The notes under the pieces are model-generated. The model was not told the origin of the DNA, made no database searches, and saw only the letters and a list, made by a program, of their open reading frames with translations. From an uncultured bacterium (GTDB lineage Bacteria; Chlamydiota; Chlamydiia; Chlamydiales; SM23-39), in NCBI GenBank assembly GCA_964450765.1, contig CAYVDU010000001.1, forward strand, positions 1 through 44,350: a DNA stretch of 44,350 bases, in the 5' to 3' direction. The translations under genes were made by a program, and so were the position numbers. Shown piece after piece: positions 1,817 to 39,492 of this stretch (its first letter is position 1; each line of letters starts with the position of its first letter).

Positions 1817-3097
1817 TTAAAGCTCAGAAATAAAATCCGTTTTCTTTTTATTTGCCGATTTTAACTCCATATTGTCAAAGATTTGTACATCAAGATCGTC
1901 CTGGAAATACTTCTTAAACTCGTTGATCAGAAGCGTCAAATGAGGAGAAGTTAAACCGTTTTCTACCTCCACTTTCAGATGACCCCGCTGAGACTGAATT
2001 GCCAAATAATTCAAGATCAAGTCGTGCTCCATCGCAAGATTCTTGAAGACATAATATAAGGTTAGGCTTGGGTATTGATCTTTGTAGCCATAAATAACTT
2101 TTCCGACCCGACCCAAAACATCTTTAATAATATAATGTTGCATTCCACACCGGCATTTTTCTTGCCGATCGATCTCAACATAATCTCCTAATTTAAACCT
2201 GATAATTGGAAATGATTTTGATACCAGGTTCGTCACAATGATTTCATTGTTTTCCTCCTCAACTAAAACCGTTTCCATGTTCATATGCATATTACCGAAC
2301 GGGCACTCAAATGCAATAATCCCAGCTTCAGCCGCTCCATATTCACTGATTATTTTCCTCCCAAACGCCCTCTGAACTTCGACCTGATATTTTTCGAATA
2401 TCTTTTCCGAGGTTCCTTTAACCATCTTTAAGCTAAATTCCGGTCTGGGTTTCTTGGTATTCACCTTTTTCGCAATCTCATAAATCATGGAGGAGTATCC
2501 CCCCAGAAAGGATGCCTTCTTTAGTTTATTTATAAAAACGTCAATTTCATCGTCTTTGTATGAAAATAACCTAAATCTATTCTGAAGCAAATCTAAGAAC
2601 CTTGTCTTAATACGACGCCTTGGCGAGAGGTTATAACCCCATAAATAACCGTTTCTATCCCACGGCTTAACCCCATACCAGTGATAACCCCGATACACAG
2701 ATGCTCTATGCCATGCGTCCCAATCCATATTTCTATAAAATACCAGCGGTTTTCCGGTGCTTCCGGAAGTCTCAGAATAGAATAATTTCTCAGAGCCACT
2801 TTTAATTTGGATTGTTGAAGAATTTTGGAGCAATTCCTGTTTCGTGAGGATCGGAATCTTATTGAGGTCCTCCAGTGATTTGATCGAATCAGGCAGGATA
2901 TTCAATTGTTGAAATTTTTTTTTATAATATTCGGAATGCTGGTATGCATGATCCAGGAGGGCCCTCAGCATCTGAAATTGGTGATTTTGAAGAGTTTTTA
3001 TATCCCAATCCTGGCTTTTTAACAAAAAACCATAGTTTCGGAAGATTTTCTTATTCCGAATGAGAGTCCCGGCCAGGTAGATAATTTTGCTAAACAT
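1817..3097 (-). CDS. CapK-like / phenylacetate-CoA-ligase-family adenylate-forming enzyme (F390-synthetase-like)
   Basis: 426 aa. Adenylation P-loop-like motif SETSGSTGKPLVFY. Length and layout are typical of PaaK/CapK-family capsule enzymes. Confidence 0.7.
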   Translation of the reverse strand: MFSKIIYLAGTLIRNKKIFRNYGFLLKSQDWDIKTLQNHQFQMLRALLDHAYQHSEYYKKKFQQLNILPDSIKSLEDLNKIPILTKQELLQNSSTIQIKSGSEKLFYSETSGSTGKPLVFYRNMDWDAWHRASVYRGYHWYGVKPWDRNGYLWGYNLSPRRRIKTRFLDLLQNRFRLFSYKDDEIDVFINKLKKASFLGGYSSMIYEIAKKVNTKKPRPEFSLKMVKGTSEKIFEKYQVEVQRAFGRKIISEYGAAEAGIIAFECPFGNMHMNMETVLVEEENNEIIVTNLVSKSFPIIRFKLGDYVEIDRQEKCRCGMQHYIIKDVLGRVGKVIYGYKDQYPSLTLYYVFKNLAMEHDLILNYLAIQSQRGHLKVEVENGLTSPHLTLLINEFKKYFQDDLDVQIFDNMELKSANKKKTDFISEL

Positions 3098-10782: not shown

Positions 10783-12243
10783 TTAAACAGGCACACTCTC
10801 TTCCGAGAGCTTTTGAGGTTTTTTCATCAGTTTTTTCAAGACCAATAATTCTGATGAATTAAATGTTTTCAACATAAAAATCGCCAAGGTGTAAACGACG
10901 GCGCCGACAAAAATAACGGCAAAAATGTTATATTCCCCAAGCAAATAAACCACTCCGGACATGACAGATGCAGCGATGACTGGCTTTAAGTAATTATGAA
11001 AGAGGCGAAGGTTTTTTATATCTCTATTCAAAAAATAATAACCCTGTCCCAATCCAAACAGAATGCAAAAAACAGATGTAATCGCTGCACCGATATGACC
11101 GTAGAGGGGAATCATGAACGAGTTCAATACGACATTTACGATTAAGGAAAAGACGTTTAGCCACATTAATATTTTTACCTTTCCGACTGCGGCGAGCCCA
11201 TAACCGAAAGGATCCCGTATAAAACCAAAACTGATCCCAACGGAGATGATTCTTAAAACAATAACCGAATTTTCATATTCTGGTCCAAAAACAAGGTTGA
11301 TAATTTGAGGCGCCAAAATAAAAGTTCCAGCGCTAATTGGGACGCCTATGATCGTTAAAATCTTAATTGTAAAGTTACAGGATCTTCTGAGTTGATCGAT
11401 CGATTCAGAGTATTGCCTTGCAAATAACGGATACGTTACAGAGGAAACCGCTTGTGGAATAATAAATAAACCAAAAAACAAGTCATTGGCTGCTGCCGAG
11501 AACCACCCAACAGCCATATCTCCCTTGAGTTTTGAGAGCATAATAATATCTATTTTGAAAAACAGAGTGGCGATTATTCCAATCGTCAAGAACGGAAAGG
11601 CGTCCACAAGGGTTTTTTTAAGAAAAGGAAAGTCGATTGTAAAATCGAGCCTTCCAAAATTTTTTATTAAAATGAGATAAGCAACGATAAAACCGATGAA
11701 TAAAGTCAGCACTTTTGAAAAGATAATTTCTATCAGAGTGCCATTCCAATAAGCTAAAAATGCGACAAAAACAAGACCAACGATGCCATTAACTATCGTA
11801 ACGATGGAGGCATATTCCATCCTCTGAAACCCTTTGAAGGCGGAAGAGATGGAGTTGGTCAGTGTATTAAAGATGATATGAAACGAAAAAACGGCAGTAC
11901 ACAAGATAATCTCTTTGGGGTATCCCATTAAATAGACCATGAGAATTAAAGAGATCATACTGAAAAAGCTGAGAAGCGGCTTGGTAATAAAACTTGCAGC
12001 GATATATTTGGGAGCAAGGGTGTAATCCTGCGCGACGTCTCGGATGATTAGATCATTAAGGCCGAAATCCGAAATAATGGTAAAAATATAAGCCAGTGAC
12101 ACTACCAAAGAGTACTTTCCGTAATCCTCAGGGCCAAGATACCTTGCTAAAATAATTGCGGTGGCCATCCCCAAGGCTCTACCGAAAACATCTCCGAATA
12201 GCACAACCACGAAGTTTTTTAATATACGCCGATGGGAACTCAT
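10783..12243 (-). CDS. Wzx-type polysaccharide/oligosaccharide flippase (MOP superfamily)
   Basis: 486 aa polytopic membrane protein. N-terminus KNFVVVLFGDVFGRALGMATAIILARYLGPEDYGKYSLV is typical of the Polysacc_synt family. Confidence 0.8.
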   Translation of the reverse strand: MSSHRRILKNFVVVLFGDVFGRALGMATAIILARYLGPEDYGKYSLVVSLAYIFTIISDFGLNDLIIRDVAQDYTLAPKYIAASFITKPLLSFFSMISLILMVYLMGYPKEIILCTAVFSFHIIFNTLTNSISSAFKGFQRMEYASIVTIVNGIVGLVFVAFLAYWNGTLIEIIFSKVLTLFIGFIVAYLILIKNFGRLDFTIDFPFLKKTLVDAFPFLTIGIIATLFFKIDIIMLSKLKGDMAVGWFSAAANDLFFGLFIIPQAVSSVTYPLFARQYSESIDQLRRSCNFTIKILTIIGVPISAGTFILAPQIINLVFGPEYENSVIVLRIISVGISFGFIRDPFGYGLAAVGKVKILMWLNVFSLIVNVVLNSFMIPLYGHIGAAITSVFCILFGLGQGYYFLNRDIKNLRLFHNYLKPVIAASVMSGVVYLLGEYNIFAVIFVGAVVYTLAIFMLKTFNSSELLVLKKLMKKPQKLSEESVPV

Positions 12244-19463: not shown

Positions 19464-20108
19464 TTAATTTGCTCCAGACAATAAGGGGATGACGATATGG
19501 TCCAGCAAAGAGTATGCTTTTTTGTTTAAATGAAGACCGTCTCCGCTGGTCAAGTCTGCTCTTAACCTTCGATCTGAATCACTCCTCCTCAAGGCAGCTT
19601 CCAAATCGAGAAGAAAAAAACCCTTCTCTTTCGAATATTTTTTAATCCAGTCATTGTATTCGAGAATATAGCTAAGCCGTTTTTCAAGATTGACTTTGCC
19701 CAGTGGGAAAACTTTCTTCAGAACATCCTTGAAATAGGGCACGCTCAAAAAATCAGGCGCGGTCACCGGCACCACCGTCGTGGGGATGGGGACGATGTTG
19801 TTTTTTGACAATTCCTCGATCCAGCCTTGCATGAGCCGCTTCTGTTTTCCGAAATCACCTGGAAAATAGGCGGCACACTCTTTTAGGAATACCGCGAATG
19901 GTCTATTCGAGGTCCTTTTCGTTATCTGGCTGACCGCTTCGCTTTTGTCGAAATCATATTCACCGATAAACTCAAACGTGTAACCGGTAACGCCGATCCT
20001 CTTCGGCAGCTCAGCGATATTCCAGGCGTGCCCCACCGACGCCCCCACCAAAATAATATGTTTTGTTTCTGAGCCGATCCTATGATTCAAGTCTATTCCC
20101 CTTAACAT
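19464..20108 (-). CDS. SGNH/GDSL-like hydrolase-fold protein (tentative), paralog A, no signal peptide
   Basis: 214 aa. IILVGASVGHAWN (GxS block-I-like) and SGDGLHLNKKAY (DxxH block-V-like). Roughly half the residues are identical to the adjacent ORF by eye. Confidence 0.4.
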   Translation of the reverse strand: MLRGIDLNHRIGSETKHIILVGASVGHAWNIAELPKRIGVTGYTFEFIGEYDFDKSEAVSQITKRTSNRPFAVFLKECAAYFPGDFGKQKRLMQGWIEELSKNNIVPIPTTVVPVTAPDFLSVPYFKDVLKKVFPLGKVNLEKRLSYILEYNDWIKKYSKEKGFFLLDLEAALRRSDSDRRLRADLTSGDGLHLNKKAYSLLDHIVIPLLSGAN

Positions 20109-20113
20109 GGTAG

Positions 20114-20833
20114 TTACTGCAGAGCGAGTTTCGTTTGTTCTTGATGCATGGTTTTCGCTTTCATTATTGTAGGGATAACGATCTTATCCAATAGGGCATA
20201 AGCATCTCGATTTAAATGCATTCCATCCCCACTGGATAACTCCGGTCTTAACCTCCGATCGCTTTCATCCCTCCTGAGGGTACCTTCTAAATCGAGAACA
20301 GCCAAACCTTTTTGATCGGCGTATTTTCTGACCCAATCGTTAAACTCCACAACGTAACTCTGTCTTTTTTCGATATTGATCTTGCCCATCGGCAGATATT
20401 TTTTCATCAGATTTTTAACATATTGTACCGTAAACATCCGAGGAGAGGTCACCGGAACGACCGTTGCCGGAATAGGAATAATCCCGTTTTTTTGAAGGGC
20501 CTCGATCCACTTTTGCATCAGCTCCTTCTGTTCCTCAAACTTGCCGGGGAAATAGGTGGAACACTCCTTTAAAATAACAGCATCAGGTTTTGGATTCCGC
20601 ATCAGGATTTCGTTCAACGCCTTGCTTTTATCGAAAACATACTCGCCGACGAACTCAAAGGTGTATCCTCCCGCGTCGATCCGATTCGGCAATTTCCCGA
20701 TATCCCATCCTTCTCCGATCGAAGCGCCAAGAAGAATGACATGTTTTGTTTGGGGAGTTTCAGCCCCGCTTGTCGCCCCTCCCCCCAAGAGCAGAAGAGA
20801 TAAAACGGCAAAAGCCCCGATTAAGGTTTTCAT
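20114..20833 (-). CDS. SGNH/GDSL-like hydrolase-fold protein (tentative), paralog B, with N-terminal signal peptide
   Basis: 239 aa. Signal-like MKTLIGAFAVLSLLLLGGGATSGAE, then VILLGASIGEGWD and SGDGMHLNRDAY. Confidence 0.4.
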   Translation of the reverse strand: MKTLIGAFAVLSLLLLGGGATSGAETPQTKHVILLGASIGEGWDIGKLPNRIDAGGYTFEFVGEYVFDKSKALNEILMRNPKPDAVILKECSTYFPGKFEEQKELMQKWIEALQKNGIIPIPATVVPVTSPRMFTVQYVKNLMKKYLPMGKINIEKRQSYVVEFNDWVRKYADQKGLAVLDLEGTLRRDESDRRLRPELSSGDGMHLNRDAYALLDKIVIPTIMKAKTMHQEQTKLALQ

Positions 20834-22032
20834 TTTACCCCCATCGACGGTTTATTGTTTCCCAGACCCTCACGCGCCGTGGTCCAGGTGGTATAAGTAT
20901 CTCCTTTTATATACTTGATCCAACCGATAAAGATCGCAATGTTCACCACCATAAAAGTGTGAGACATCGATATCAGCCTGGAAAAATTTTTCATGCGTCT
21001 CGAATAACTGAGGAGACTCAAAATGTAAAAAAACAATTGGACAAGAAAAGCAGCGAGATAGATTATTCCCTGGTTCAGGAGAAAGAGATTTAAAACAAAC
21101 GCGCTTAACAAAAAGAAGGGGACAAGCATCTTACTCACCTTATGAGACAGAAGTTCAAACGAAAAAAAACCGTATTTGAAGGGATTCATTAACCCCCTTT
21201 GGCTTACCAACGCCCGAATGGTCCTGTTGCTGATTCTGACCTGGCGGTTGAATTCTCCTTTCGTTCCCTTTGCAATCTTTTCGATACAGAATGCATTTTC
21301 ATCCAGGATGCCTCGAAATCTTTTTCTGACGATCATCAGAGGAATCACAAAATCGTTGATATCGACACTCTGGAGCGGTTCATACAAGTTTTTTCGAATG
21401 GCGAAGATGGCGCCGTCCGCGCCGACACAAGAACCGGTACGGCTCTCCAAGATCTTGGTGATATTCTCAATTTTCGAGTAGACCCCGATCGAATCGAGCA
21501 TCTTTTCGCCATTTTCGGAAATGTATTTGGTTCCTCCGGTGACAAAACCGATTCGAGGATCGGAAAAATGCGAGACCAATTTTTCGATGGCATCACGGTC
21601 ATATTTTGAATTTGCGTCTGAGAATACGATAATATCCCCCTTCGCCAACGGAACCGCCTTATTAAGGCAGGCGGTCTTTCCGATTCTCCCCTCATACGAT
21701 CGGAGGGTGACCGCCTGAGCGGCATATCGGGTGACGATCTGATCGGTCCGATCGGTCGATCCGTCGGAGATGACGACGATCTCAAAAAGATCTTTTGGAT
21801 AACTTAGCGCGAGCGAATTTAAGAGTTTTTCTTCGATCACTTCTTCTTCATTATAAACAGAGATTAAGAGCGATACTTTGGGCTTGATCTTTCTGGGTTG
21901 AATTTCTTGTTTGTCCCATTTTACAAGAGAGATGAACCACAAAAGAATCGGGTAGCCCACATACGAATAAAAAACAGCGAATACACAAAACCAGAAAAAA
22001 AATGGGAGCATTGTCATATCGCGTTCATCCAC
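20830..22032 (-). CDS. Membrane-anchored GT2 glycosyltransferase (processive-synthase-like layout)
   Basis: 400 aa. N-terminal TM, VSLLISVYNEEEVI, VISDGSTDRT, VFSDANS, then 3-4 C-terminal TM helices. Confidence 0.75.
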   Translation of the reverse strand: MDERDMTMLPFFFWFCVFAVFYSYVGYPILLWFISLVKWDKQEIQPRKIKPKVSLLISVYNEEEVIEEKLLNSLALSYPKDLFEIVVISDGSTDRTDQIVTRYAAQAVTLRSYEGRIGKTACLNKAVPLAKGDIIVFSDANSKYDRDAIEKLVSHFSDPRIGFVTGGTKYISENGEKMLDSIGVYSKIENITKILESRTGSCVGADGAIFAIRKNLYEPLQSVDINDFVIPLMIVRKRFRGILDENAFCIEKIAKGTKGEFNRQVRISNRTIRALVSQRGLMNPFKYGFFSFELLSHKVSKMLVPFFLLSAFVLNLFLLNQGIIYLAAFLVQLFFYILSLLSYSRRMKNFSRLISMSHTFMVVNIAIFIGWIKYIKGDTYTTWTTAREGLGNNKPSMGVK

Positions 22033-22038
22033 ATTGAT

Positions 22039-23268
22039 TCAGCGATTGCTGATCGAACAATTGGCAACCCACCGGAGGTCTTTCGATGGAGACTCTTGGA
22101 CAAGGAGTTGACAAACATTTTTTTTGTCCCACTCCGAAAGATAAGGATGGGTAGGTAACGCCAGAAGCGTCTCCGCCATCCTTTTCGCCACAGGAAAATC
22201 GCTTCCCTTGAAATGGTCCTTGATCTCTTCGATTTCATTGATTGGCACCGGGTACATCAGGCTGAGGCCGAAACCTTGTTTTCGTGAGAGGGCATAAAGC
22301 CGGTCTCGATCTTCATGGCGATTCATCAGAATAGGTAGCCGGAGGTAGGAAACGGCGCTTTCCTTCCTTACCGGTTTCAATTGTAAATGTTCTCTGAAGT
22401 ATGCTGCTGTTTCTGTCCTCTTTTGGTTCGATCGTTCCAGATGTTTCTTCCAGTTTCCCAGGAGAACGGCCTTCATTCCCGACAACTTCTTCACCGGGAA
22501 ATCCCGATGAAAAAACGTCTCCCCTAGTTTAAGAAAGGGAAGACCGGCCGGAAACCAGTAAAGGGCTGGACGAATAAAGAGGGTCATCAGCACAAGCTGT
22601 AGAAATTCCCCGATCGTTTCGCCCATCCGTGGCGCTTCGAGGTCATGATAATACCGACGGATTGCCTCGGCGATCCGGTCAGAATTTGTGACGACGATCC
22701 CGCCTGAACCGCAGGTAATGTTCTTTCCACGGCCCAGGCTAAAAAAACCAACGTCTCCGAGTGTGCCGAGCTTGGCCCTTTTGTAGTTCCCCCCCATTGC
22801 CTGAGCGGCATCTTCGACGACATAGACATCCCTCTCTCTGCAAAGGCGATTGACACGGTCCATATCCGAAGGAATCCCGAAGAGGTGGCTAGGAATGACG
22901 CAGAGGGTATCTTCAGTCACCGCTGCTTCCAGAAGTTGATAATCAAAATCGAAGGTCGAAGCATCAACATCACACAAGGCCACTTCAAGCCCTGCTTTCA
23001 AAATAGCCGAAGGAACGGAAAAACAGGTATACGCCGGAATGACAACCCCTCTCTTCGGGGAAAGCGACTTCAGCGCGAGCAAGATCAACGTTAGCGCCGC
23101 CTTTCCGGATGAAACAAGGAAAAGGTGTTTGACGCCGAAATAGGCTTTCATCTCCTCTTCAATTCGTTGAGTTGAAACGCGATCGGTAAAGAAACCGGTC
23201 AAACCGCGTCCGAGATCTTTCCAATCAAGCGGCGCCGCTGCCGGAGGGATCGTCCTCTGAATTTTCAT
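22039..23268 (-). CDS. DegT/DnrJ/EryC1/StrS-family PLP-dependent sugar aminotransferase
   Basis: 409 aa. VSSGKAALTLIL, VIPAYTCFSVPSAI, VVEDAAQAMGG, FFSLGRGKNITCGSGG (PLP lysine context). Confidence 0.85.
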   Translation of the reverse strand: MKIQRTIPPAAAPLDWKDLGRGLTGFFTDRVSTQRIEEEMKAYFGVKHLFLVSSGKAALTLILLALKSLSPKRGVVIPAYTCFSVPSAILKAGLEVALCDVDASTFDFDYQLLEAAVTEDTLCVIPSHLFGIPSDMDRVNRLCRERDVYVVEDAAQAMGGNYKRAKLGTLGDVGFFSLGRGKNITCGSGGIVVTNSDRIAEAIRRYYHDLEAPRMGETIGEFLQLVLMTLFIRPALYWFPAGLPFLKLGETFFHRDFPVKKLSGMKAVLLGNWKKHLERSNQKRTETAAYFREHLQLKPVRKESAVSYLRLPILMNRHEDRDRLYALSRKQGFGLSLMYPVPINEIEEIKDHFKGSDFPVAKRMAETLLALPTHPYLSEWDKKNVCQLLVQESPSKDLRWVANCSISNR

Positions 23269-24301: not shown

Positions 24302-25390
24302 CTATCTCATCACAATTTTGGCCATCGATTTAAAAAACCGGAGCGTGAGCCAGATCATCAGGGGCCATCTTGGCTTATAAAAATGGAGTCCAAGGGAGCG
24401 GTCTCCTCGATCAGCCCAATGGAACTTATACTCCTCGTACCCTTTGAGAAAATTATACTCCGAATACCCTTCGGTAATCGCTTTTTCAATCGAAAGTCCC
24501 ACCAAGATATTTCCAATGCTGATATTTTTATTGAACGAATGGTCTACCGCCATCAGATACATCAAAAGGCTCTCTCCGCAGCGTAAATGCAAGAGTCCGG
24601 CGATGGTTTTTCCATCCACATTCAAGAGATCGAGCTGAACTTTGTCCTCTCCCTGAGAATGAAGAAGAACCTTCTCAACAAAGAGAAGAAGCTCATCTGC
24701 ATTGTCCCACCGCTGTTGATAAAGTGCCTTGAAGTCCTTGAGCACCGGCCCGATCTTCTCCCGTCTCAAGGAGTCATGACGAACCGCCCCTTCTCGCTCT
24801 AATAGCCTCAAGTGCCTTGAATATTGTTGTCTCCTATTAGGAGACAACCGCGCCAAAAAGTCTTCACGTGTTTTGGGAAGAACGAGGGAAGGGCAAAAAG
24901 CCCCTGCTTCCACCTCGGAATACTTTCCGTCTTCCTGCATCTGCTCTATAAAGTGAAGGAGAAATAAAGAATCGGACGGGACATCCAAAAACCCGAAACA
25001 GTCCCACTGAGAAACGGCTTCTTCAAAAAGAAACCGATAGATCGACCGGGCGACCTCTTTCTCTTTCCCCTTCTTTGCGAAAACATCCAGATAGTCCGAC
25101 CCCGCCTCCGGCGTCCCGAGAAACTCGATCCGCCTCATCGGGAATCCGCCATATCGGATTTTCCGTATGCACCAAGGGGCAATACCAATGAGGGTGTTCT
25201 CATTGTGAACCGTCAGAATATAGAGTTTACTGTCTTCTTTCAGGAAGACCTCTGCCCAGGGGTAGAGCCATTCCCATGTGAGAAAAATGCGATCCGACCC
25301 CGACCGACGAAGGAGATCGTTCCACTCTTTGGAAAGTGCTTGCCACCCTTCCATCGAAGTGACAATATTTATTTTGTGATCGCGGCTCAT
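24302..25390 (-). CDS. CelD/BcsL-like GNAT (FemAB-like fold) acyltransferase
   Basis: 362 aa. GWQALSKEWNDLL...IFLTWEWLYPWAEVF...LIGIAPW and C-terminal YNFLKGYEEYKFHWA resemble the Acetyltransf_6/CelD family. Confidence 0.6.
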   Translation of the reverse strand: MSRDHKINIVTSMEGWQALSKEWNDLLRRSGSDRIFLTWEWLYPWAEVFLKEDSKLYILTVHNENTLIGIAPWCIRKIRYGGFPMRRIEFLGTPEAGSDYLDVFAKKGKEKEVARSIYRFLFEEAVSQWDCFGFLDVPSDSLFLLHFIEQMQEDGKYSEVEAGAFCPSLVLPKTREDFLARLSPNRRQQYSRHLRLLEREGAVRHDSLRREKIGPVLKDFKALYQQRWDNADELLLFVEKVLLHSQGEDKVQLDLLNVDGKTIAGLLHLRCGESLLMYLMAVDHSFNKNISIGNILVGLSIEKAITEGYSEYNFLKGYEEYKFHWADRGDRSLGLHFYKPRWPLMIWLTLRFFKSMAKIVMR

Positions 25391-26946
25391 TGCGGCAAGA
25401 ACTCCGGAAGCAATGGCCGGATTGCTTTGATGAATGATTGACTCTGAACCGATTGCTTCAAAAGATCCTCCGGATGAGAAAAATCAGCGGTTACCATCAC
25501 GATAGCGCCGTCAGTTCTTGCTTGCAACAACGACCCGATCATCGTCTCTTTTTTCGCTTGATACCAATCGGCAACGTCGCGGCCATGCAGATAATACCAA
25601 AATAGGGTCAGTTTCTTTGGATTTCCGTCCTCTATCACACGATTCACTTCAATCAGGTGATTGTCATCAAGGCTTATTCTTATCTTTTCGGCATTGCGAT
25701 GGAGTCCGGAGACTTTATAGTTAATCAGCTTTTTTTCACGATCCTGGGACGCATAATACCCAACATACAAACGAAGGGAATCTCCGGTGTTTGTCTGATA
25801 GCTCCTTGAAAGTTCTTCATCCACCCCAAAAGTACGATAGAACAAATAATCTGGTGATGTTTCTTTCCCAAACCACTCTGCCAGTTGAATGGGAAAATTC
25901 TTTAAAGGCGCCTTTAATGGCGTCGGTTGCTGTTGATAGAGATGAAGGTAACTCCCTATCAGGAACAAGACGGCAGAAAGAAAGAGCCCTATGTTGGGGA
26001 GCTCAGTTTTTTTTAGAACGAGCCCTGGTCTGTTTTTCGGATTGAATGCTTTGGCCGACAGTGCCGAAGGCGCAGCAGGCTTCGACAGAATCCACACCCC
26101 CGCAAAAATCGTCCCATAACCGATCAGGGAGACAGAAAGTCCCTGTAGAACGTGGAAGGGACCGTGAAGATCTCCTGCAATGCCGTAATACGAAAGTGCC
26201 CCAATCAGGGCAACCCGGAGTACATTACTGAAGGCCGCAATGGTGACGGAAAACCCAAGAAGAAGGGTCCTTCTCCACCATCCAATCAAAAAAAGATAGG
26301 CCATGGGAATTCCGATTGCAATCACTGCAATCAGATAGTTGACCCCGCTACAAATATCGGCCACTTCCAGGGTGATATTTGGTAATTCAATATAGACTCC
26401 ATTTCGATAGACAGGGATACCGAAAAACCGTAGAAGCCGCGTCCCCAGATTCGCCGAAAAAAATTGAAAGGGAAGATGAAGCCGTTCTGTAATAAATCCC
26501 CAAAGCGGAATCATAAAAAGAAGATAGGCGATTGGAAACCACAAGTAACGAAGCGACCCCCCCCCCAACATCAGAAGAACGGCCCCCATCAGGGTCACGA
26601 TCAGCGAGAGTTCTTCAAGCAAGGCAATGCTGCTCGCGTGACCGACGACCAGCATCGATAAACCGGCCAGAAAGAGGAGACCCCCTTTAAGATAGTCCGG
26701 CGCCGGTTCGATCTCGCGGAGCTTTTCTCTTTGGACCCAAACCAGATAAAGGCTGATCCAGGGGATGAGAAAACCATACGAATAGATGTCGTTGCTCCAC
26801 CAGAGGCGGACCAAGGTCATAAACACCTGGACATAACAAAACACGAGGGCGAACAGGAGCAGTCCCGCCGACCCCAGAACTTGCCAATTGATTAAAAAAG
26901 TCTCTTTGGCATTCGAAAGAATGACCGATTTTTCTGAAAGCTTCAT
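25387..26946 (-). CDS. Exosortase (EpsH family) fused to a C-terminal EpsI-family domain
   Basis: 519 aa. YSYGFLIPWISLYLVW entry motif, and candidates for the invariant triad: ADICSGVNYL (Cys199, codon 26350..26352), NVLRVALIG (Arg244), LHGPFHVLQG (His261/265). About 8 TM helices in aa 1-290. After one more TM helix comes a soluble domain of about 200 aa (...YVGYYASQ...FWYYLHG...). Confidence 0.85.
   Translation of the reverse strand: MKLSEKSVILSNAKETFLINWQVLGSAGLLLFALVFCYVQVFMTLVRLWWSNDIYSYGFLIPWISLYLVWVQREKLREIEPAPDYLKGGLLFLAGLSMLVVGHASSIALLEELSLIVTLMGAVLLMLGGGSLRYLWFPIAYLLFMIPLWGFITERLHLPFQFFSANLGTRLLRFFGIPVYRNGVYIELPNITLEVADICSGVNYLIAVIAIGIPMAYLFLIGWWRRTLLLGFSVTIAAFSNVLRVALIGALSYYGIAGDLHGPFHVLQGLSVSLIGYGTIFAGVWILSKPAAPSALSAKAFNPKNRPGLVLKKTELPNIGLFLSAVLFLIGSYLHLYQQQPTPLKAPLKNFPIQLAEWFGKETSPDYLFYRTFGVDEELSRSYQTNTGDSLRLYVGYYASQDREKKLINYKVSGLHRNAEKIRISLDDNHLIEVNRVIEDGNPKKLTLFWYYLHGRDVADWYQAKKETMIGSLLQARTDGAIVMVTADFSHPEDLLKQSVQSQSFIKAIRPLLPEFLPQ
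26557..26566 (-). repeat. G10 homopolymer (C10 on the plus strand) inside the exosortase coding frame
   Basis: Plus strand aagcgaCCCCCCCCCCaaca. The minus strand reads TTG GGG GGG GGG TCG, encoding LGGGS at aa 127-131. Confidence 0.95.
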
Positions 26947-29846: not shown

Positions 29847-31832
29847 CTATTTAAGACTTAAAAACGAATCTCCAGGGAATACGGCATTGAGATCCGGTTT
29901 CTTCTTTTTTATAAACTGCTCGTACAGCAGTTGAACCGACAAAGATCCAACCAGTGCCATCCCATCTTTTATCCCCATTTTTTCTTGACGGCGGCACCGT
30001 GCGAGAAGCCCATTCAGTGGTTTTGTTGAAAAGATGCCGGCATCATCGAGTCGCCCCGGAGAGAAGGCTTCGTCTACATAACCGAATCCTTTCCCATTTG
30101 GGAAAAGAGCGGCCTGGTCCGGAGCACGGTAAGGTTGTTTTTCTCTATTCAGAATCGCAGACGGTAATTTCCCTTCGGCACCCTGGCGTAGAACATGCTT
30201 TTCTCTCAAGCATTTCAACTTGAAATGAGGCGGAATGGTTGCGGCAAATTCGACGACCCGATGATCTAAAAACGGATAACGGCCTTCGACGCCGTGCGCC
30301 ATTGCCATCCGGTCTCCTTGCGAAGCGAGAATATATCCAGGAAGAAGGTAGGCCGATTCGAGATACTGAGCTTGTGAGAGGGGATGCCACGTTGAGAAGG
30401 CCAACGGCAACTCATCTCGAAGCTCGGCGATAGGATCGTATCCCTTCAATGCTTCCTTCATCTTCTCGGAGTAAAGACCTTTTAAGGAAGAAGTTACTCG
30501 CCAGCGAGGAGCGTGGGAATAGAAGGGATCATTCGTTTCTTCCAAGCCCTGACCGAAGAAGGCGGTTAGATATGCGGCGGCTTGTCCCTTCATCTCGGAA
30601 AGATATGGATAAAGGCGCCGCAACAGGAGGGGACGCATCCGAGATTTGGGTGCTTGAGCCCAGAACCGTCGTACCTTCGCTTCCTTAAATATATCATACC
30701 CGGCCAGGACCTCATCCGCCCCCTCCCCGGTGAGAACGACTTTGATTCCTGCTTCGCGGACCCCTTTTGCCAGGAGCATCATCGGAACTGGTGCCGTTCG
30801 AATGATTGGTCTTTCTGTGTGCCAGATCGCTCTCGGGAAAACCTCGCCGATCTGCGTGCTACTGCATCGAAAGGCATGATGTTCTGTGCCAAGATGGCGA
30901 ACAACCATCGATTGAAAGGCGCTCTCATCAAAGTCTTTGGCTTCGAATCCGATCGAAAATGTTTTTAACCGATCATTGATTCGGTGCCTGGAAAGGGCGG
31001 TGATCACGGAAGAGTCGAGCCCTCCACTAAGATATGTGCCGACCGGAACATCGGCGCGAAGGCGAATCTTCACCGCTTCGTCCAAAAGCTGCATCAAAGT
31101 CTCGGTGTACCATTTTTCGGGGTGAGGATGAGACAGTCTGGACTCTTCCATCGAAGGGAACGGAAGGTCCCAGTACTGGTCGATCCGGGTTCCCCTTTCG
31201 CTCACTGTCATTGTGTGACCGGGGGGGAGCTCGTTCACTCCGATGAAACCGGTCCGGGGAGGGATCGGAAACCAAAACGTGAAGACCTGATCGATAGCAA
31301 AGGGATCGATTTCCCTTGGAAGAGTCGGGTCTTCAAAAAGGGCCTTGATCTCCGAACCGAAAAGAAGGCTTCCATTGTGCTCGGTATAAAAGAGCGGCCT
31401 CACTCCCATTCGATCTCTTGCGAGAAGGAGTTCGCGCCGTCTTCCATCCCATAGGGCAAAAGCAAATTGGCCATTGAATTCCCTGACGCAGTTTTCACCC
31501 AGCTCTTCATAAGCATGCACGATTACTTCAGTGTCTGAACCGGTCTTAAAGGTGTGTCCCTTAATGATCAGGGATGATCTGAGTTCATGGTGGTTATAGA
31601 TTTCCCCGTTGAAAACGACCCAGATCGAACCATCCTCATTGCACATTGGTTGATGCCCACCGGAAAGGTCGACGATGCTGAGCCGGGTATGTCCCAACCC
31701 GAGATCATTCGAGAGGTAGGTTCCTGAATCGTCCGGACCGCGATGATCGAGTGTTCCAACCATTCGATCTAAGAGAGCCCGATTTACAGGCACTTTTGAA
31801 ATTATATTCCAAATGCCAGCTATTCCGCACAT
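29847..31832 (-). CDS. Asparagine-synthase-family glutamine amidotransferase (AsnB-like), exosortase-locus type
   Basis: 661 aa. N-terminal nucleophile MCGIAGIW, GHQPM, and PP-loop-like YLSGGLDSSVI in the synthetase domain. Confidence 0.9.
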   Translation of the reverse strand: MCGIAGIWNIISKVPVNRALLDRMVGTLDHRGPDDSGTYLSNDLGLGHTRLSIVDLSGGHQPMCNEDGSIWVVFNGEIYNHHELRSSLIIKGHTFKTGSDTEVIVHAYEELGENCVREFNGQFAFALWDGRRRELLLARDRMGVRPLFYTEHNGSLLFGSEIKALFEDPTLPREIDPFAIDQVFTFWFPIPPRTGFIGVNELPPGHTMTVSERGTRIDQYWDLPFPSMEESRLSHPHPEKWYTETLMQLLDEAVKIRLRADVPVGTYLSGGLDSSVITALSRHRINDRLKTFSIGFEAKDFDESAFQSMVVRHLGTEHHAFRCSSTQIGEVFPRAIWHTERPIIRTAPVPMMLLAKGVREAGIKVVLTGEGADEVLAGYDIFKEAKVRRFWAQAPKSRMRPLLLRRLYPYLSEMKGQAAAYLTAFFGQGLEETNDPFYSHAPRWRVTSSLKGLYSEKMKEALKGYDPIAELRDELPLAFSTWHPLSQAQYLESAYLLPGYILASQGDRMAMAHGVEGRYPFLDHRVVEFAATIPPHFKLKCLREKHVLRQGAEGKLPSAILNREKQPYRAPDQAALFPNGKGFGYVDEAFSPGRLDDAGIFSTKPLNGLLARCRRQEKMGIKDGMALVGSLSVQLLYEQFIKKKKPDLNAVFPGDSFLSLK

Positions 31833-34210: not shown

Positions 34211-34915
34211 TCAGTAGCCATACTCGTAATACTTCGAAGGCCAATCCATTTTGGCCCGGTTGAGAACGCTCCCAATTACTTTTTCAGGGCCGAGTGATTT
34301 TATTGCCTGGGAAAGGGCTTGCTGAGGAACCTCCCCCGCACCCACAACGAGGATCACCCCGTCAACCGCTTGGGAGATGAGACTCATATCGAAGAGAGGA
34401 AGAATCGGCGGCCCATCGACCCAAATGTAATCGAACCAGCTTCGCACCTCATTCAAGAGCTCTGGAACTTTCCCCGATGTCCAAACATTGTCCCCTCTTT
34501 TAAGGGAGCGTCCCATTGGAAGAACAGCCACATTCTCGACCGGACCTTTCTTCAATGCATTGCCAAGTTGTAGTTTTCCATCCACTACTTCGACCAGGCC
34601 GGACTCGTTTGCCATCTTGAAGCGTTTTGCCAGTGCCGGGTGGTTGTAGTCACCGTCGATGATGAGACATCTCTTACCAAAGTCTCTTCCGCATACAACC
34701 GCCAGATTTGCGGCCGTGGTCGTTTTGCCTTCTCCTTTGATCGAGCTCGTGAAGGCGATGATCTTCTTTTGTGGTGTCCGGCAGATCTGGTCAACCTTCG
34801 TGAACAGCATCCTGTAGCGGTCGGAGGAAACCGAGTCTCTCCGGGAGAGTGTGACCAGTTCATCTCCTCCCTGAAAGTCAGGAATGATTCGCTTCGTCAT
34901 CTGTTTCCCCATCAT
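34211..34915 (-). CDS. BY-kinase-type tyrosine autokinase (cytoplasmic ATPase subunit)
   Basis: 234 aa. Walker A SSIKGEGKTTTAANLA, A' LIIDGDYNHP, B IWVDGPPILP, and a C-terminal Tyr cluster SKYYEYGY. Alternative start at 34900 (GGGGA upstream). Overlaps the 3' end of the Wzz-like gene. Confidence 0.85.
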   Translation of the reverse strand: MMGKQMTKRIIPDFQGGDELVTLSRRDSVSSDRYRMLFTKVDQICRTPQKKIIAFTSSIKGEGKTTTAANLAVVCGRDFGKRCLIIDGDYNHPALAKRFKMANESGLVEVVDGKLQLGNALKKGPVENVAVLPMGRSLKRGDNVWTSGKVPELLNEVRSWFDYIWVDGPPILPLFDMSLISQAVDGVILVVGAGEVPQQALSQAIKSLGPEKVIGSVLNRAKMDWPSKYYEYGY

Positions 34916-36512
34916 GGACCATCGTCCTACTTATTTTTTTTTCGGAAAATCGCCACTCTTCATCAAAGTCCGGAATAGAGGCGAGTACTGGTACTGAGGT
35001 AATTCGTTCGACCTCATCCGGTTTCCGGATCGACCCGTCCAGGCGCTCTCTTACAAAAGCCAGTGCAAGGCCGACCCCCAGTCCTCCGACCAAGCCCCCA
35101 AGACCTATCTTCATCGGATCTGGTTTGAACGGTTTTTCTGGAAGGTTGGCCGGATCAAGAATTCGGAACTGCTCCCCCTTCTGTTTCTTTTCGAGGTTCT
35201 CTGAAATTTTAGCATTGAGTTTTTTGTCGTGAAGGCTTTGGTAATTTTTCTTTGTATTCTCATAATCGCGTTCTAGAACGGCTAATTCCTGCTCGCGTGA
35301 GGGGGCGGTTTCTACACGACGCTCATAGACCTGAATTTGCCGTTGAAGGTCTCGTTCCCGTTCGCTCAACCGCTTTGATTCTGCTTCCACTTCTTGAATT
35401 TGACTTTTCAGATCGGACAGACGCCTCTGTTCCAGGTCTAAATCGAGGGGAGGTCTCGCAAGCGCATCCCCCCTGTGATCGGGAGCAGCCAACCCGCCCC
35501 CTTCTGGTGGGGGAGGCGCTTCAGTTATTTGTCCTTCGACAAGCCGACTCTCCAGTTTTTCAATTTCCTGTCGAAGCATCACCACATCTGGGTAGTTTTC
35601 TTTATATTCCCCCAAGAGATTTGCAAGATCTCTTTTTCGCTCGTTCAACAACAGCATGAGAGCCGAACGGGAGCGCGACTCTTGGGAGTGATTCGTCAGG
35701 GGCTGCCCTGGAGTGGTTCCGATTGGTCCCCTCCCCGTCAGTGTTATTTCATCCATTTGTTGTTGTGTCATTTGAATGGTCTTTTCGAATATTGTTTTCC
35801 GGTCTTGGGCCGCTCGTTTCGCCAATTGGGTCCCGAGCAACTCCGACTGCATCCGATCGAGCGAGCGGAGGTTCGCCTCCAATTGTTGTGGCAGTTCGCC
35901 CATATAAGCCCGCTTGAATTGGCCGATCTGCGCCTCCTGACGTTCCAAGGTTTCTTTAAGAGTGGTCAGTTCGTTATCCAAAAACTCGGTCGTCCCCTCG
36001 ACCATTTGCTCGCGAATTTTCAGGTTTTCCTCGATAAAGAGGGAGGCCAGTTCGTTTGTCACATTCATTACGGTTAAGGGGTTTTTCCCCTGGAAAGAAA
36101 GCGAAAACGCCTCGACGTTATTGTTCCTCGCCGTGGTTGTTTTTACTTCGATGTTATTCCGCATTAAGCCGACGACTTCTTCACTCGTCATTTCTTTTGA
36201 TCCGTCGGAATAAAGGCCGAACTTCCGAATGATTTTTTCGAGAAGGGAACGGCTCATGATCTGTTGTTGTATCGTTGAGAGACGTCCTTCAACCGTCCCC
36301 GTCACAGCCGATTTGACATATTCTTCCGGAACTGTTTGGGCTTCAACCAGAATAAGAGTGGTTGACCTGTAAGTCTTCGGGAGCTTCAAAATGAGTGCAA
36401 TTGAAACCAGAATTCCAATGACGAGTGGGATGATGATCCAAAACTTTCGGCGCCATGCCATCGTCAAATATTCAAAGAAAAGTGTCTGGAACTCTCTATT
36501 CTCTTGGTCCAT
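34878..36512 (-). CDS. Polysaccharide chain-length determinant (Wzz/GumC-like, PEP-CTERM-locus type)
   Basis: 544 aa. N-terminal TM (FWIIIPLVIGILVSIALIL), a long coiled-coil periplasmic region with a Pro/Gly-rich insert (EAPPPPEGGG), and a C-terminal TM (GLGGLVGGLGVGLALAF). Confidence 0.8.
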   Translation of the reverse strand: MDQENREFQTLFFEYLTMAWRRKFWIIIPLVIGILVSIALILKLPKTYRSTTLILVEAQTVPEEYVKSAVTGTVEGRLSTIQQQIMSRSLLEKIIRKFGLYSDGSKEMTSEEVVGLMRNNIEVKTTTARNNNVEAFSLSFQGKNPLTVMNVTNELASLFIEENLKIREQMVEGTTEFLDNELTTLKETLERQEAQIGQFKRAYMGELPQQLEANLRSLDRMQSELLGTQLAKRAAQDRKTIFEKTIQMTQQQMDEITLTGRGPIGTTPGQPLTNHSQESRSRSALMLLLNERKRDLANLLGEYKENYPDVVMLRQEIEKLESRLVEGQITEAPPPPEGGGLAAPDHRGDALARPPLDLDLEQRRLSDLKSQIQEVEAESKRLSERERDLQRQIQVYERRVETAPSREQELAVLERDYENTKKNYQSLHDKKLNAKISENLEKKQKGEQFRILDPANLPEKPFKPDPMKIGLGGLVGGLGVGLALAFVRERLDGSIRKPDEVERITSVPVLASIPDFDEEWRFSEKKISRTMVHDGETDDEANHS

Positions 36513-36588: not shown

Positions 36589-37015
36589 ACAGGAGCTTGC
36601 GGTGATCCGGAGCCATCCCTGGGAAAACTTCATGATATATAGTAAAATGTATGTGATCACTTCCTAGAGATCAATCCCCTCAAAAGGGGGGGGCATCATC
36701 CCTCTTTAAAAATTTATAATACATTGAAATTAAATAATACTTAATCTACGTATTATTTTTAAATAGGGACCTTGTAATGATTAGTTTCTGATTATGTTAA
36801 GTATAATTATATAGTATATTGTGCCTAATATTAAGTTCTCATTTTATCATAATCTCATTTAAGTTGGAGTTCAGAGGTGGAGGATAGTAGGACCTTTGAT
36901 TTTTTGATAGAAACATTCAGGAAACTGACAGCTTTTTATGTAGAGAGCCTCAGTAATAACACTTGTCTTTGGGTTAGCCCCCTATGAAGTGTCTCAGTAA
37001 TGGTTTTACAGTCCA

Positions 37016-37206: not shown

Positions 37207-39492
37207 TCATAGTCCCTGAAGTGTTTTTTCCGCTTCATCCGAGCCCGGGAATATCTTGCTTAACCTTAATGACTCAGCGAGTTCTCTTTTGGCATCCTCT
37301 TTCTGTCCGTTTTTATAATATGCCATGCCGAGGTGGTATCGAACGACGGGGTTCTGAGAAAGCTTGGCGGCGCTCTCTTCCAAAAGGGAGATCGCTTTCA
37401 GATAAACATTCTTCTTATAGTAGATCCAGCCGAGCGTATCCGAAATTCCCGGATCATCGGGATGTTTTTCCTTCGCCATCTGCGCCAGGTCTAACGCACG
37501 GTCGATATTTCCGCCATGTTCAGCATAAAGCCATGCCAGGTTATTTGCCGCAGGGGTAAATGTTGAGTCTATTTCAAGTGCCTTTTCATATTCCTTTTGC
37601 GCTTCATCATGTTTCTGTTGCCCGTCGTAAATCACCCCCCGTAACATATGAATTTGGGGCGCATTTGGTTTGACTTTCAGGGCTTCATCCAGTCGATGTA
37701 AGGCCTGATCGAATTTTTTCTCATGGGCATATAGATTTCCAAGATCGATATATGAAACCAGGTCATTCGGATTCACTTCGATTCCTTTTTGAAGGGCCTC
37801 TTCGGCTTTCTTGAGGTCCCTTTTCGTAATATAGAGTTTGGCCAAAAGAGAATACAAAGCCGAATTTTGAGGCGATACTTCTATCTGCGTGATCACCCGT
37901 TTGAGTGCCTTCTCAAGGTCTTTTTTGGAGAGGTCGATTGAGACGATTCGTGCCAATGCCTCAACATGATTGGGATAAAGAGAGAGCGCTTTTTCAAAGA
38001 GGGGAACCGCCTCCTGTTCCTTTTTCTGGCTGTATCGAATCAGGCCCAATTTGTAGTAACCGATCGGGTTATCCGGAGCCGACTTCATGACCTGTTGATA
38101 AACCGCCTCCGCCTTTTTAATCTCCCCTTTCAAGAATGACGCGTCTCCCAAAATCACCTGCGCCGTCAGATTCCCCGGGTCCAATGCGGTCACCCGTTCC
38201 GCTTCAGAAGCGGCAAGGTCAAATGAACGCGACTGGAGATAAATGTCGGCCAGAACAAGCCGGGCCCGGAAGTCATTCGGATTCTGCTTGACCGCCTCTA
38301 AAAACGCCCCCTTCGCTTGTTGAGGATGATGATCGGCGAGCAAGGCAAGCCCAAGGTAATATTGCCCTGAAAAGAGGGACGGTTCGGACTGGATCGCCTT
38401 CCGCAGAAATGTGACCGCTTCGCCGCTCTTGTTCTCGGTAAGGAGGAACCGTCCTTTTAGCAAAAGTCCCTCCGGGTTTCCCTCGTTTTTGCCAAGGATT
38501 TCTTCAATCATCCCCTTCGCTTCTTCTTTCTTTCCCTGACTCAGGTAGAAATCCGCCAGCTTTTTCCAGACAAAAATCGATTCCGGCTTTGCCTCTTTTG
38601 CTTGTCGATAACTCTTTTCCGCTTCTTCCATTTTTCGAAGGCCGGCATAAAAATCGCCGAGTGTGATCAACGGCTCAGGGTCTTTCGGGTCGAGACGGGT
38701 CGCTTCGATCAACCGCATCTCCGCTTCTGCGGTCCGTTTTTCAATGATGTAAAAATTCGCCAATCCGAAATAGAGAAATTTGTTCTTGGGCGCGATCGAG
38801 AGCCCTTTTTGGTAGTAAGATTCCGCTTCTTTCGGTTGACGGGTATAATGATAAAACCGAGCCAGATGGATGTGACTTTCGACCGATTGCGGATCGATGG
38901 CGAGGGCCTTTTGAAGGAGGGCCTCTGCGGCAGCGGGATCCTTCTTCATTAGGGAGAGGCCGGCGAATTCGTAATAGGTCGGCAGACGCTTCGGGTCAAG
39001 GTCGAGCATCTCTTGATAAATCTTTCCAGCCTCATCGAGACGGCCTTCCCGCTGGTCGATTCGTGCCTTGATGGAGAGCGCACCCAGGTTATCCGGTGCT
39101 TTTTCCAACACCCGGTCGGCTTTTTCCCATGCACTCTTGAGGTCGTTGGCCGATAAGTAAAGCATGGCAAGGTCGACTTGGGCATCAATCAGTTCGGGTC
39201 TTTGCTCCGTCACCTCGCTCAAGAGTTTAAACCCGTTCCGAAGATTCGCCGTACCCCCGAGTTTTAGATAGATCCGTCCAAGTTGGTATTTTGCATCGGA
39301 ATGATTCGGGTCGGCCTGCAAGACGTTTTTAAACTCGATCATTGCCTCTGGATATTTCATTTGAGAAACATATTCCATCCCCCTCCGAAAATGCTTCTCT
39401 TTCTTGGCCTCGGTCGAAGTGCAAGAGGATAACGCTGCAAGAAAGAACAGGGAGAAGACCACCAAGAGGATTGTTTTTAACTTCATGTTCAC
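37207..39492 (-). CDS. prsT: PEP-CTERM-system TPR-repeat lipoprotein
   Basis: 761 aa. Lipoprotein signal MNMKLKTILLVVFSLFFLAALSSC (lipobox LSSC), followed by TPR repeats throughout (many A..Y..AL..DP motifs). It sits at the head of an exosortase locus. Confidence 0.8.
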   Translation of the reverse strand: MNMKLKTILLVVFSLFFLAALSSCTSTEAKKEKHFRRGMEYVSQMKYPEAMIEFKNVLQADPNHSDAKYQLGRIYLKLGGTANLRNGFKLLSEVTEQRPELIDAQVDLAMLYLSANDLKSAWEKADRVLEKAPDNLGALSIKARIDQREGRLDEAGKIYQEMLDLDPKRLPTYYEFAGLSLMKKDPAAAEALLQKALAIDPQSVESHIHLARFYHYTRQPKEAESYYQKGLSIAPKNKFLYFGLANFYIIEKRTAEAEMRLIEATRLDPKDPEPLITLGDFYAGLRKMEEAEKSYRQAKEAKPESIFVWKKLADFYLSQGKKEEAKGMIEEILGKNEGNPEGLLLKGRFLLTENKSGEAVTFLRKAIQSEPSLFSGQYYLGLALLADHHPQQAKGAFLEAVKQNPNDFRARLVLADIYLQSRSFDLAASEAERVTALDPGNLTAQVILGDASFLKGEIKKAEAVYQQVMKSAPDNPIGYYKLGLIRYSQKKEQEAVPLFEKALSLYPNHVEALARIVSIDLSKKDLEKALKRVITQIEVSPQNSALYSLLAKLYITKRDLKKAEEALQKGIEVNPNDLVSYIDLGNLYAHEKKFDQALHRLDEALKVKPNAPQIHMLRGVIYDGQQKHDEAQKEYEKALEIDSTFTPAANNLAWLYAEHGGNIDRALDLAQMAKEKHPDDPGISDTLGWIYYKKNVYLKAISLLEESAAKLSQNPVVRYHLGMAYYKNGQKEDAKRELAESLRLSKIFPGSDEAEKTLQGL

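Follow-up and report, generated by a model that had tools for sequence, protein, structure and literature searches.

Poly-G and poly-C contingency loci are familiar from the capsule and lipooligosaccharide genes of Campylobacter jejuni, from siaD of Neisseria meningitidis, and from fim and bvgS of Bordetella, as well as from Haemophilus, and their tracts are known for length polymorphism between and within strains, for recurrence in many genes, and for measured switching rates. Here we describe a tract of similar appearance in a 44,350-nucleotide stretch of metagenome-derived DNA (the whole of contig CAYVDU010000001.1, positions 1 to 44,350; hereafter the window), in which ten consecutive C residues at 26557–26566 of the plus strand form a G10 homopolymer on the coding (minus) strand of an open reading frame (ORF) at 25387–26946 encoding an exosortase W (XrtW). 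Like the contingency loci, the site combines a G/C run of at least 8 nt with a position in the 5′ part of a surface-biogenesis gene, where a slip of ±1 leads to an early stop. However, every resolved copy of the exosortase tract is G10, and the window represents only 44 kb of the genome. Moreover, the classical examples come from host-adapted bacteria, whereas the host here is a free-living relative of Nitrospirota, and our search of the literature for exosortases in connection with phase variation or homopolymeric tracts turned up none described as phase-variable. We conclude, with a probability of roughly 0.6, that the homopolymer is genuine and its length of ten correct, but that it arose recently and incidentally, at a helix turn whose sequence varies, in an exosortase W that is intact.

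Akkermansia muciniphila carries (G)8 and (C)10 runs in exopolysaccharide and capsule genes, for which phase variation has been proposed from sequence alone (PMC3048395). As in the present case, the organism is non-classical, possesses a PEP-CTERM/exosortase system, and has tracts predicted solely from its sequence, but these lie in capsule biosynthesis and acyltransferase genes rather than in an exosortase, and a genome-wide positional bias of repeats was shown (PMC3048395). For the 5′ poly(A) tract of Listeria monocytogenes inlA, the homopolymeric-tract model of Orsi et al. (2010) describes an efficient and potentially reversible inactivation (PMC2831843). The exosortase and inlA tracts are both homopolymers located in the 5′ portion of genes related to the cell surface; however, the overrepresentation described by Orsi et al. 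concerns poly(A) and poly(T) runs of up to 7 nt whereas our tract is poly(G), and frameshifted inlA alleles have been seen in strains, arising ∼1000-fold above the point-mutation rate, whereas no variant allele of the exosortase was observed (PMC2831843). With the other exosortase W members (NCBIfam NF038142), the protein shares a full-length match, the Cys/Arg/His residues, the EpsI fusion, and an XrtA-like PEP-CTERM/exopolysaccharide (EPS) locus; unlike them, it alone among 57 sites has an extended G run or Gly-Gly-Gly at the turn between the helices.

Results

The coding strand reads ATG TTG GGG GGG GGG TCG CTT across the site (M126 L127 G128 G129 G130 S131 L132), the ten G residues being the last base of the Leu127 codon (TTG) and the nine bases of the three GGG codons for Gly128–130 (codons 127–130 of 519). 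A preliminary description of this DNA had named the run (C10 on the plus strand) as the longest G/C homopolymer of the window, had assigned it to Gly128–130 of the exosortase, and had put all other G/C runs in coding sequences at 7 nt or shorter. Our codon reading and run census agree on all three counts: the longest other runs listed in coding sequences are at 22789–22795 and 31221–31227, and the remaining runs of at least 8 nt, two G8, are both intergenic (1424–1431 and 36686–36693). At 10 nt within an ORF, the tract thus has the length of a simple sequence repeat (SSR) contingency gene, for which a G/C repeat of ∼8 nt or more inside an ORF or promoter is taken as sufficient.

The gene itself is intact. 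Its 519-aa product matches NF038142 over residues 27–517 (profile positions 5–494 of 494) with a score of 573 bits against a cut-off of 425, its Pfam matches are PF09721 and PF11984, and an EpsI domain is fused to its C-terminal part (TIGR02914 at residues 351–517; PF11984 at residues 325–516). Alignment with 31 homologues required no gaps at the tract site. In the 32-sequence family alignment, the catalytic-type residues Cys199 (26350–26352), Arg244 (26215–26217), and His261 (26164–26166) are invariant; all three lie on the minus strand within 26164–26352, 3′ of the tract, and the coordinates thus confirm that the homopolymer is upstream of them, as had been claimed. A full-length hidden Markov model match above the cut-off, conserved Cys/Arg/His residues, and the EpsI fusion together identify the protein as a member of XrtW.

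At the tract, only Gly128 is invariant in the family alignment, and positions 129–130 vary (ER, RG, KR, KP, TR, AR, and others), being usually occupied by Lys, Arg, Glu, Thr, or Gly. An AlphaFold model of the protein (mean pLDDT 82) has a helix at residues 108–126, a break at 127–128, and a second helix at 129–145, and hydropathy analysis places a hydrophobic segment on each side of the site, at which the exosortase W chain is thus modelled as turning tightly from one transmembrane helix into the next. Closest among the other species are a Nitrospirae metagenome-assembled genome (MAG; nzgw269) and Candidatus Manganitrophus sp. GAC4. In the closest relatives (70–74% amino acid and about 74–77% nucleotide identity), the corresponding codons are TGG GGG GAG AGA, CTG GGG AGG GGG, and CTG GGA AAG CGG. 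These sites are already rich in G and A (G4-A-G5 in one and G6-A-G-A-G-A in another), and the relative with CTG GGG AGG GGG is a single A>G change short of G10.

The site was locatable in 57 homologous loci; the run of G spanning their Gly128 codon measures 2–6 nt, and none of the loci (0/57) encodes Gly-Gly-Gly. The comparison of orthologues that the preliminary description had proposed, of the nucleotide tract against the GGG peptide, therefore came out against the conservation of either one, and because the relatives encode no Gly-Gly-Gly, the outcome that would have spoken against a switch there (the same GGG encoded with mixed GGN codons) does not apply. Far from being kept across related lineages beyond the needs of the peptide, the tract is confined to one species, in two strains. 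On the sequences compared, the G10 would appear to be specific to one Candidatus Manganitrophaceae species and to have arisen recently through substitutions at a site that is rich in G and A and structurally permissive. It does not look like a nucleotide feature preserved by selection across lineages.

Three copies from the same species, all of them consensus sequences, resolve the tract: the window, L089, and L088. L089 (a Logan contig from SRR12808459) is 100% identical to the window over 4,667 bp, spans the tract, and carries G10. L088, the end of a 31.7-kb contig of GCA_049651725.1, also carries G10; because it is 99.8% identical to the window and has two single nucleotide polymorphisms in common with L087, a 1,926-bp contig of GCA_049276495.1, we consider L088 and L087 to represent a second strain. 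The in-frame, ON length of G10 was thus found in 3/3 resolved copies from two strains, and the other long homopolymers (C8, A9, and C7) were likewise of equal length in both strains. Neither contig of the second strain continues far beyond the site: L088 stops 14 nt past the tract (L088 positions 11400–11423), its final 9 nt containing two mismatches and a gap of 1 nt, and L087 stops inside the tract after seven G (L087 positions 1920–1926). Coincidence cannot account for two contigs both ending within 15 nt of the run, and we thus attribute the breaks to the tract itself. L088 ends in a garbled tip and not in a clean ±1 allele, and a technical explanation fits this end slightly better.

Searches for OFF alleles came out negative. 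A 130-aa N-terminal query for OFF N-terminal products returned only two partial exosortases (129 and 134 aa), which were deposited from the L087 and L088 assemblies and arise solely from the contig breaks, and none of the C-terminal ORFs predicted for G9 and G11 contigs (375 and 385 aa) is on record. There were no matches in JGI metagenome contigs to both flanks around a tract of N{6,14} or to the upstream flank followed by G6, and an exact-product look-up of the full exosortase, in an index from which the window's own contig is evidently absent, matched no other contig. Contigs from the far side of the breaks in GCA_049276495.1 and GCA_049651725.1 were sought by exact matching of four proteins (GNAT, 239-aa, aminotransferase, and FemAB), which returned only Logan contigs, including L089, and no contigs of NCBI MAGs. 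The evidence from these negatives is weak, as few assemblies cover the site and a consensus hides minority alleles. A comparative-genomics paper on Manganitrophaceae contained nothing relevant to phase variation.

A ±1 change in repeat number would abolish the functional product, as judged by computed truncation. A G9 allele would encode a product of 144 aa and G12 one of 145 aa, both ending at the −1 frame TGA at 26511–26513, and G11 and G8 would encode products of 186 and 185 aa, respectively, both ending at the +1 frame TGA at 26387–26389 (minus strand in each case). All four products lack Cys199, Arg244, and His261 as well as the EpsI domain, and the first possible restart codons 3′ of the tract (TTG at L135 and ATG at M145) would yield products without the first approximately four helices. 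The prediction that a +1 or −1 slip truncates the protein upstream of its catalytic residues therefore holds, with computed ends at 144 and 186 aa.

The accompanying claim that such a slip would leave the EPS genes untouched is less secure. Because the gene lies in the middle of an operon, with a stop codon overlapping what may be the start of the following ORF, a premature stop could possibly also lower the expression of downstream genes through polarity. The overlap is an ATGA at 25387–25390 (minus strand; sequence CAATGA), formed by the exosortase stop and the first ATG of a GNAT-like ORF (24302–25390), and might allow translational coupling of the two. The overlapping start is also used in the gene calls of relatives (L001 and L002); in L004 and L089 the called starts lie ∼36–45 nt downstream, that on the identical contig L089 being 36 nt downstream.

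We also asked how often such a run is expected by chance. Under a first-order Markov model of the window, 0.15 G/C runs of at least 10 nt are expected in 44 kb (P ∼0.14). A Manganitrophus-type genome measures 4.3–5.2 Mb (PMC9040806), over which the same rate gives roughly 15 such runs, absent selection against them. GGG accounts for 30% of the Gly codons in the window, which encodes four Gly-Gly-Gly tripeptides, and ∼0.1 all-GGG triplets are expected from codon usage. The G10 is thus uncommon for a single 44-kb window, with a weak statistical excess. Because it was selected after the fact, being the longest run of a window made up almost wholly of surface-polysaccharide genes, its place in a “surface” gene carries little weight. 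When runs of at least 8 nt are considered, 3 were observed as compared to ∼1.9 expected (Markov model, P = 0.29). In 569 kb of homologous loci of other species, no G/C run reached 10 nt.

The exosortase gene is located mid-way in a long, same-strand, XrtA-like EPS/PEP-CTERM locus, and nearly every gene of the window is an EPS or surface gene. The locus includes genes for a PrsT-like TPR protein (a lipoprotein), a chain-length determinant, a tyrosine autokinase, a priming sugar transferase, a DUF3473 deacetylase, an Asn-synthase-type amidotransferase, an acyl-CoA ligase, and an NAD-synthase-like protein; the genes that follow the exosortase encode GNAT and FemAB-family proteins, an aminotransferase, glycosyltransferases, Wzy, a flippase, and others. 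None of the ORFs within the 44 kb encodes a PEP-CTERM-type substrate, sought as a C-terminal P-E/D-P motif with a transmembrane segment and a basic tail. An identical neighbouring protein is labelled “MAG: Candidatus Manganitrophaceae bacterium” by NCBI.

Several other features of the window were recorded. The G/C8 run at 36686–36693 is C8 on the operon strand and lies within 690 bp of AT-rich intergenic DNA upstream of the gene for the chain-length determinant (34878–36512); its length is identical in the second strain (L088). Differences between strains are strongly clustered: 10 of the 19 substitutions between the window and L088 fall within 180 nt (37231–37411) at the 3′ end of the PrsT-like gene, and 24 of the 28 between the window and L090 fall within 150 nt (21688–21841) of the GT2 gene at 20830–22032. 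These clusters look like short recombination imports. Two tandem paralogous ORFs (19464–20108 and 20114–20833; 214 and 239 aa) share extended identical motifs, among them GYTFEFxGEYxFDKS and SGDGxHLN; neither has a Pfam match at E≤1e-6, and one has a signal-peptide-like N-terminus. A 426-aa ORF at 1817–3097, also lacking a Pfam match at E≤1e-6, carries an AMP-binding-type SETSGSTGKP motif and, lying distally in the EPS locus, at its end, may encode a CapK/PaaK-like ligase. At the contig end, an ORF on the opposite strand (134–832) has no family match but by eye resembles a transposase fragment, and a transposase-like element there might explain why the contig ends.

Discussion

Our results are best explained by a tract that arose by ordinary substitution. 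One or two A>G transitions, GGG being a common Gly codon, would have produced GGG-GGG-GGG behind TTG, and since one or two such changes in the G/A-rich codons of a variable position suffice, the tract is probably incidental. Like any such run, a G10 should slip at replication far more often than ordinary sequence, and in large populations this slippage should seed exosortase-null frameshift variants (the 144- and 186-aa stubs without Cys/Arg/His). Short reads lose quality or coverage at poly-G, which would also break assemblies, and the breaks in the sister MAGs most likely stem from such poor short-read performance or from tip formation at the run. Nothing indicates that the tract is maintained or used as a switch. 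The phase-variation switch put forward in the preliminary description is thus left without support (3/3 copies are G10 and ON, OFF products were not found, and the G runs of other species measure 2–6 nt), and adaptive phase variation is unproven and leans unsupported.

A number of observations nevertheless weigh on the other side. At ten G, the run clearly exceeds the length that suffices for switching by G/C tracts in known phase-variable genes, and it is situated in the 5′ quarter of a surface-biogenesis gene. Both sister MAG assemblies, i.e., two of the three MAG assemblies of the species, break at the tract, and such breaks are ambiguous, as they are also expected from real length heterogeneity. 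The consensus sequences come from two strains only, and minority alleles are invisible in them. Finally, there are 3 G/C runs of at least 8 nt in the 44 kb of the window as compared to 3 in 569 kb of the relatives' loci (binomial P = 0.006), a 13-fold higher density per kb, and from this local density the genome may tolerate or even favour G/C tracts of at least 8 nt.

These observations are what a genuine slipped-strand switch would have in its favour. Here G10 (ON) would change reversibly to G9 or G11 (OFF), abolishing exosortase W in a subpopulation, and the loss of the enzyme would stop the processing and anchoring of PEP-CTERM-type substrates. The length of ten, the position in the first quarter of the ORF, and the stops in both shifted frames before the catalytic residues are all as such a switch requires; G10 is kept in two strains ∼0.2% apart, both assemblies of the second strain break at it, and runs of at least 8 nt are denser in the window than in the relatives' loci. 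Homopolymer-based inactivation has in addition been proposed as general in prokaryotes (PMC2831843), and similar G8 and C10 tracts have been flagged in the capsule genes of a non-classical organism (PMC3048395). However, no length variant was seen among the resolved copies (n = 3, two strains), no OFF products are on record, and the discrepancies at the end of L088 do not amount to a ±1 change of the tract. Because the tract is absent from all other species examined, nothing points to mutability having been selected for over the long term; 1–2 substitutions in a common-codon context account for the origin of the tract, and its statistical excess is weak (P ∼0.14 per window). The organism is a free-living chemolithoautotroph, SSR contingency loci are not known to have been described in that group, and our literature search found none, which also weighs against a switch. 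We therefore regard a switch as unlikely, although it is the strongest of the competing explanations.

The same sequence facts would suit a one-way mutational hot spot, at which loss-of-function exosortase mutants arise repeatedly, e.g., in enrichment culture, and are simply favoured or removed by selection, without meaningful reversion. The G5 run of Pseudomonas mucA behaves in this manner, and a recent tract would have left little time for selection to shape it. However, a frameshifted allele was never observed, and G9 and G11 would themselves stay highly mutable, so that reversion would be expected and the distinction from a switch would be mainly one of selection; we thus consider such a hot spot improbable. 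An artefact of sequencing or assembly, in which the true length is not 10 or the poly-G itself is spurious, would account for the contigs of two other assemblies that end at the tract, one of them with errors right after it, in a sequence that itself comes from a MAG. Against this, the G10 frame aligns without gaps to 31 homologues across the site, the full-length XrtW match is well above the cut-off, exactly G10 is present in three separate assemblies, and the tract is internal to a 44-kb contig. Given the gap-free alignment and the three concordant assemblies, an artefact is very improbable, and we retain the interpretation of a real but incidental homopolymer. Three further ideas were dropped. 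Programmed frameshifting or transcriptional slippage is unnecessary since G10 is in frame, a lone G10 with a distant G5 makes no convincing four-run G-quadruplex motif, and a deletion of 10 nt did not explain the odd end of L088 any better than tip errors.

For the reading of other genomes, the case suggests caution, as one or two substitutions in G-rich codons can give a surface gene of a MAG an extended G run that is no evolved switch and that can interrupt assemblies of short reads. It is doubtful that the tract is a working contingency switch, which would make it the first phase-variable exosortase and a rare SSR ON/OFF switch in a free-living, manganese-oxidising Nitrospirota lineage. If it were one, the assembly breaks in the second strain would reflect real G-length heterogeneity, and a subpopulation would shed its whole PEP-CTERM surface proteome, e.g., when leaving the biofilm or Mn-oxide matrix or escaping phage. 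All PEP-CTERM proteins of an environmental manganese oxidiser would then depend for their surface display on a single nucleotide run, and this would extend the biology of contingency loci beyond host-adapted pathogens and provide a handle on the function of exosortase substrates.

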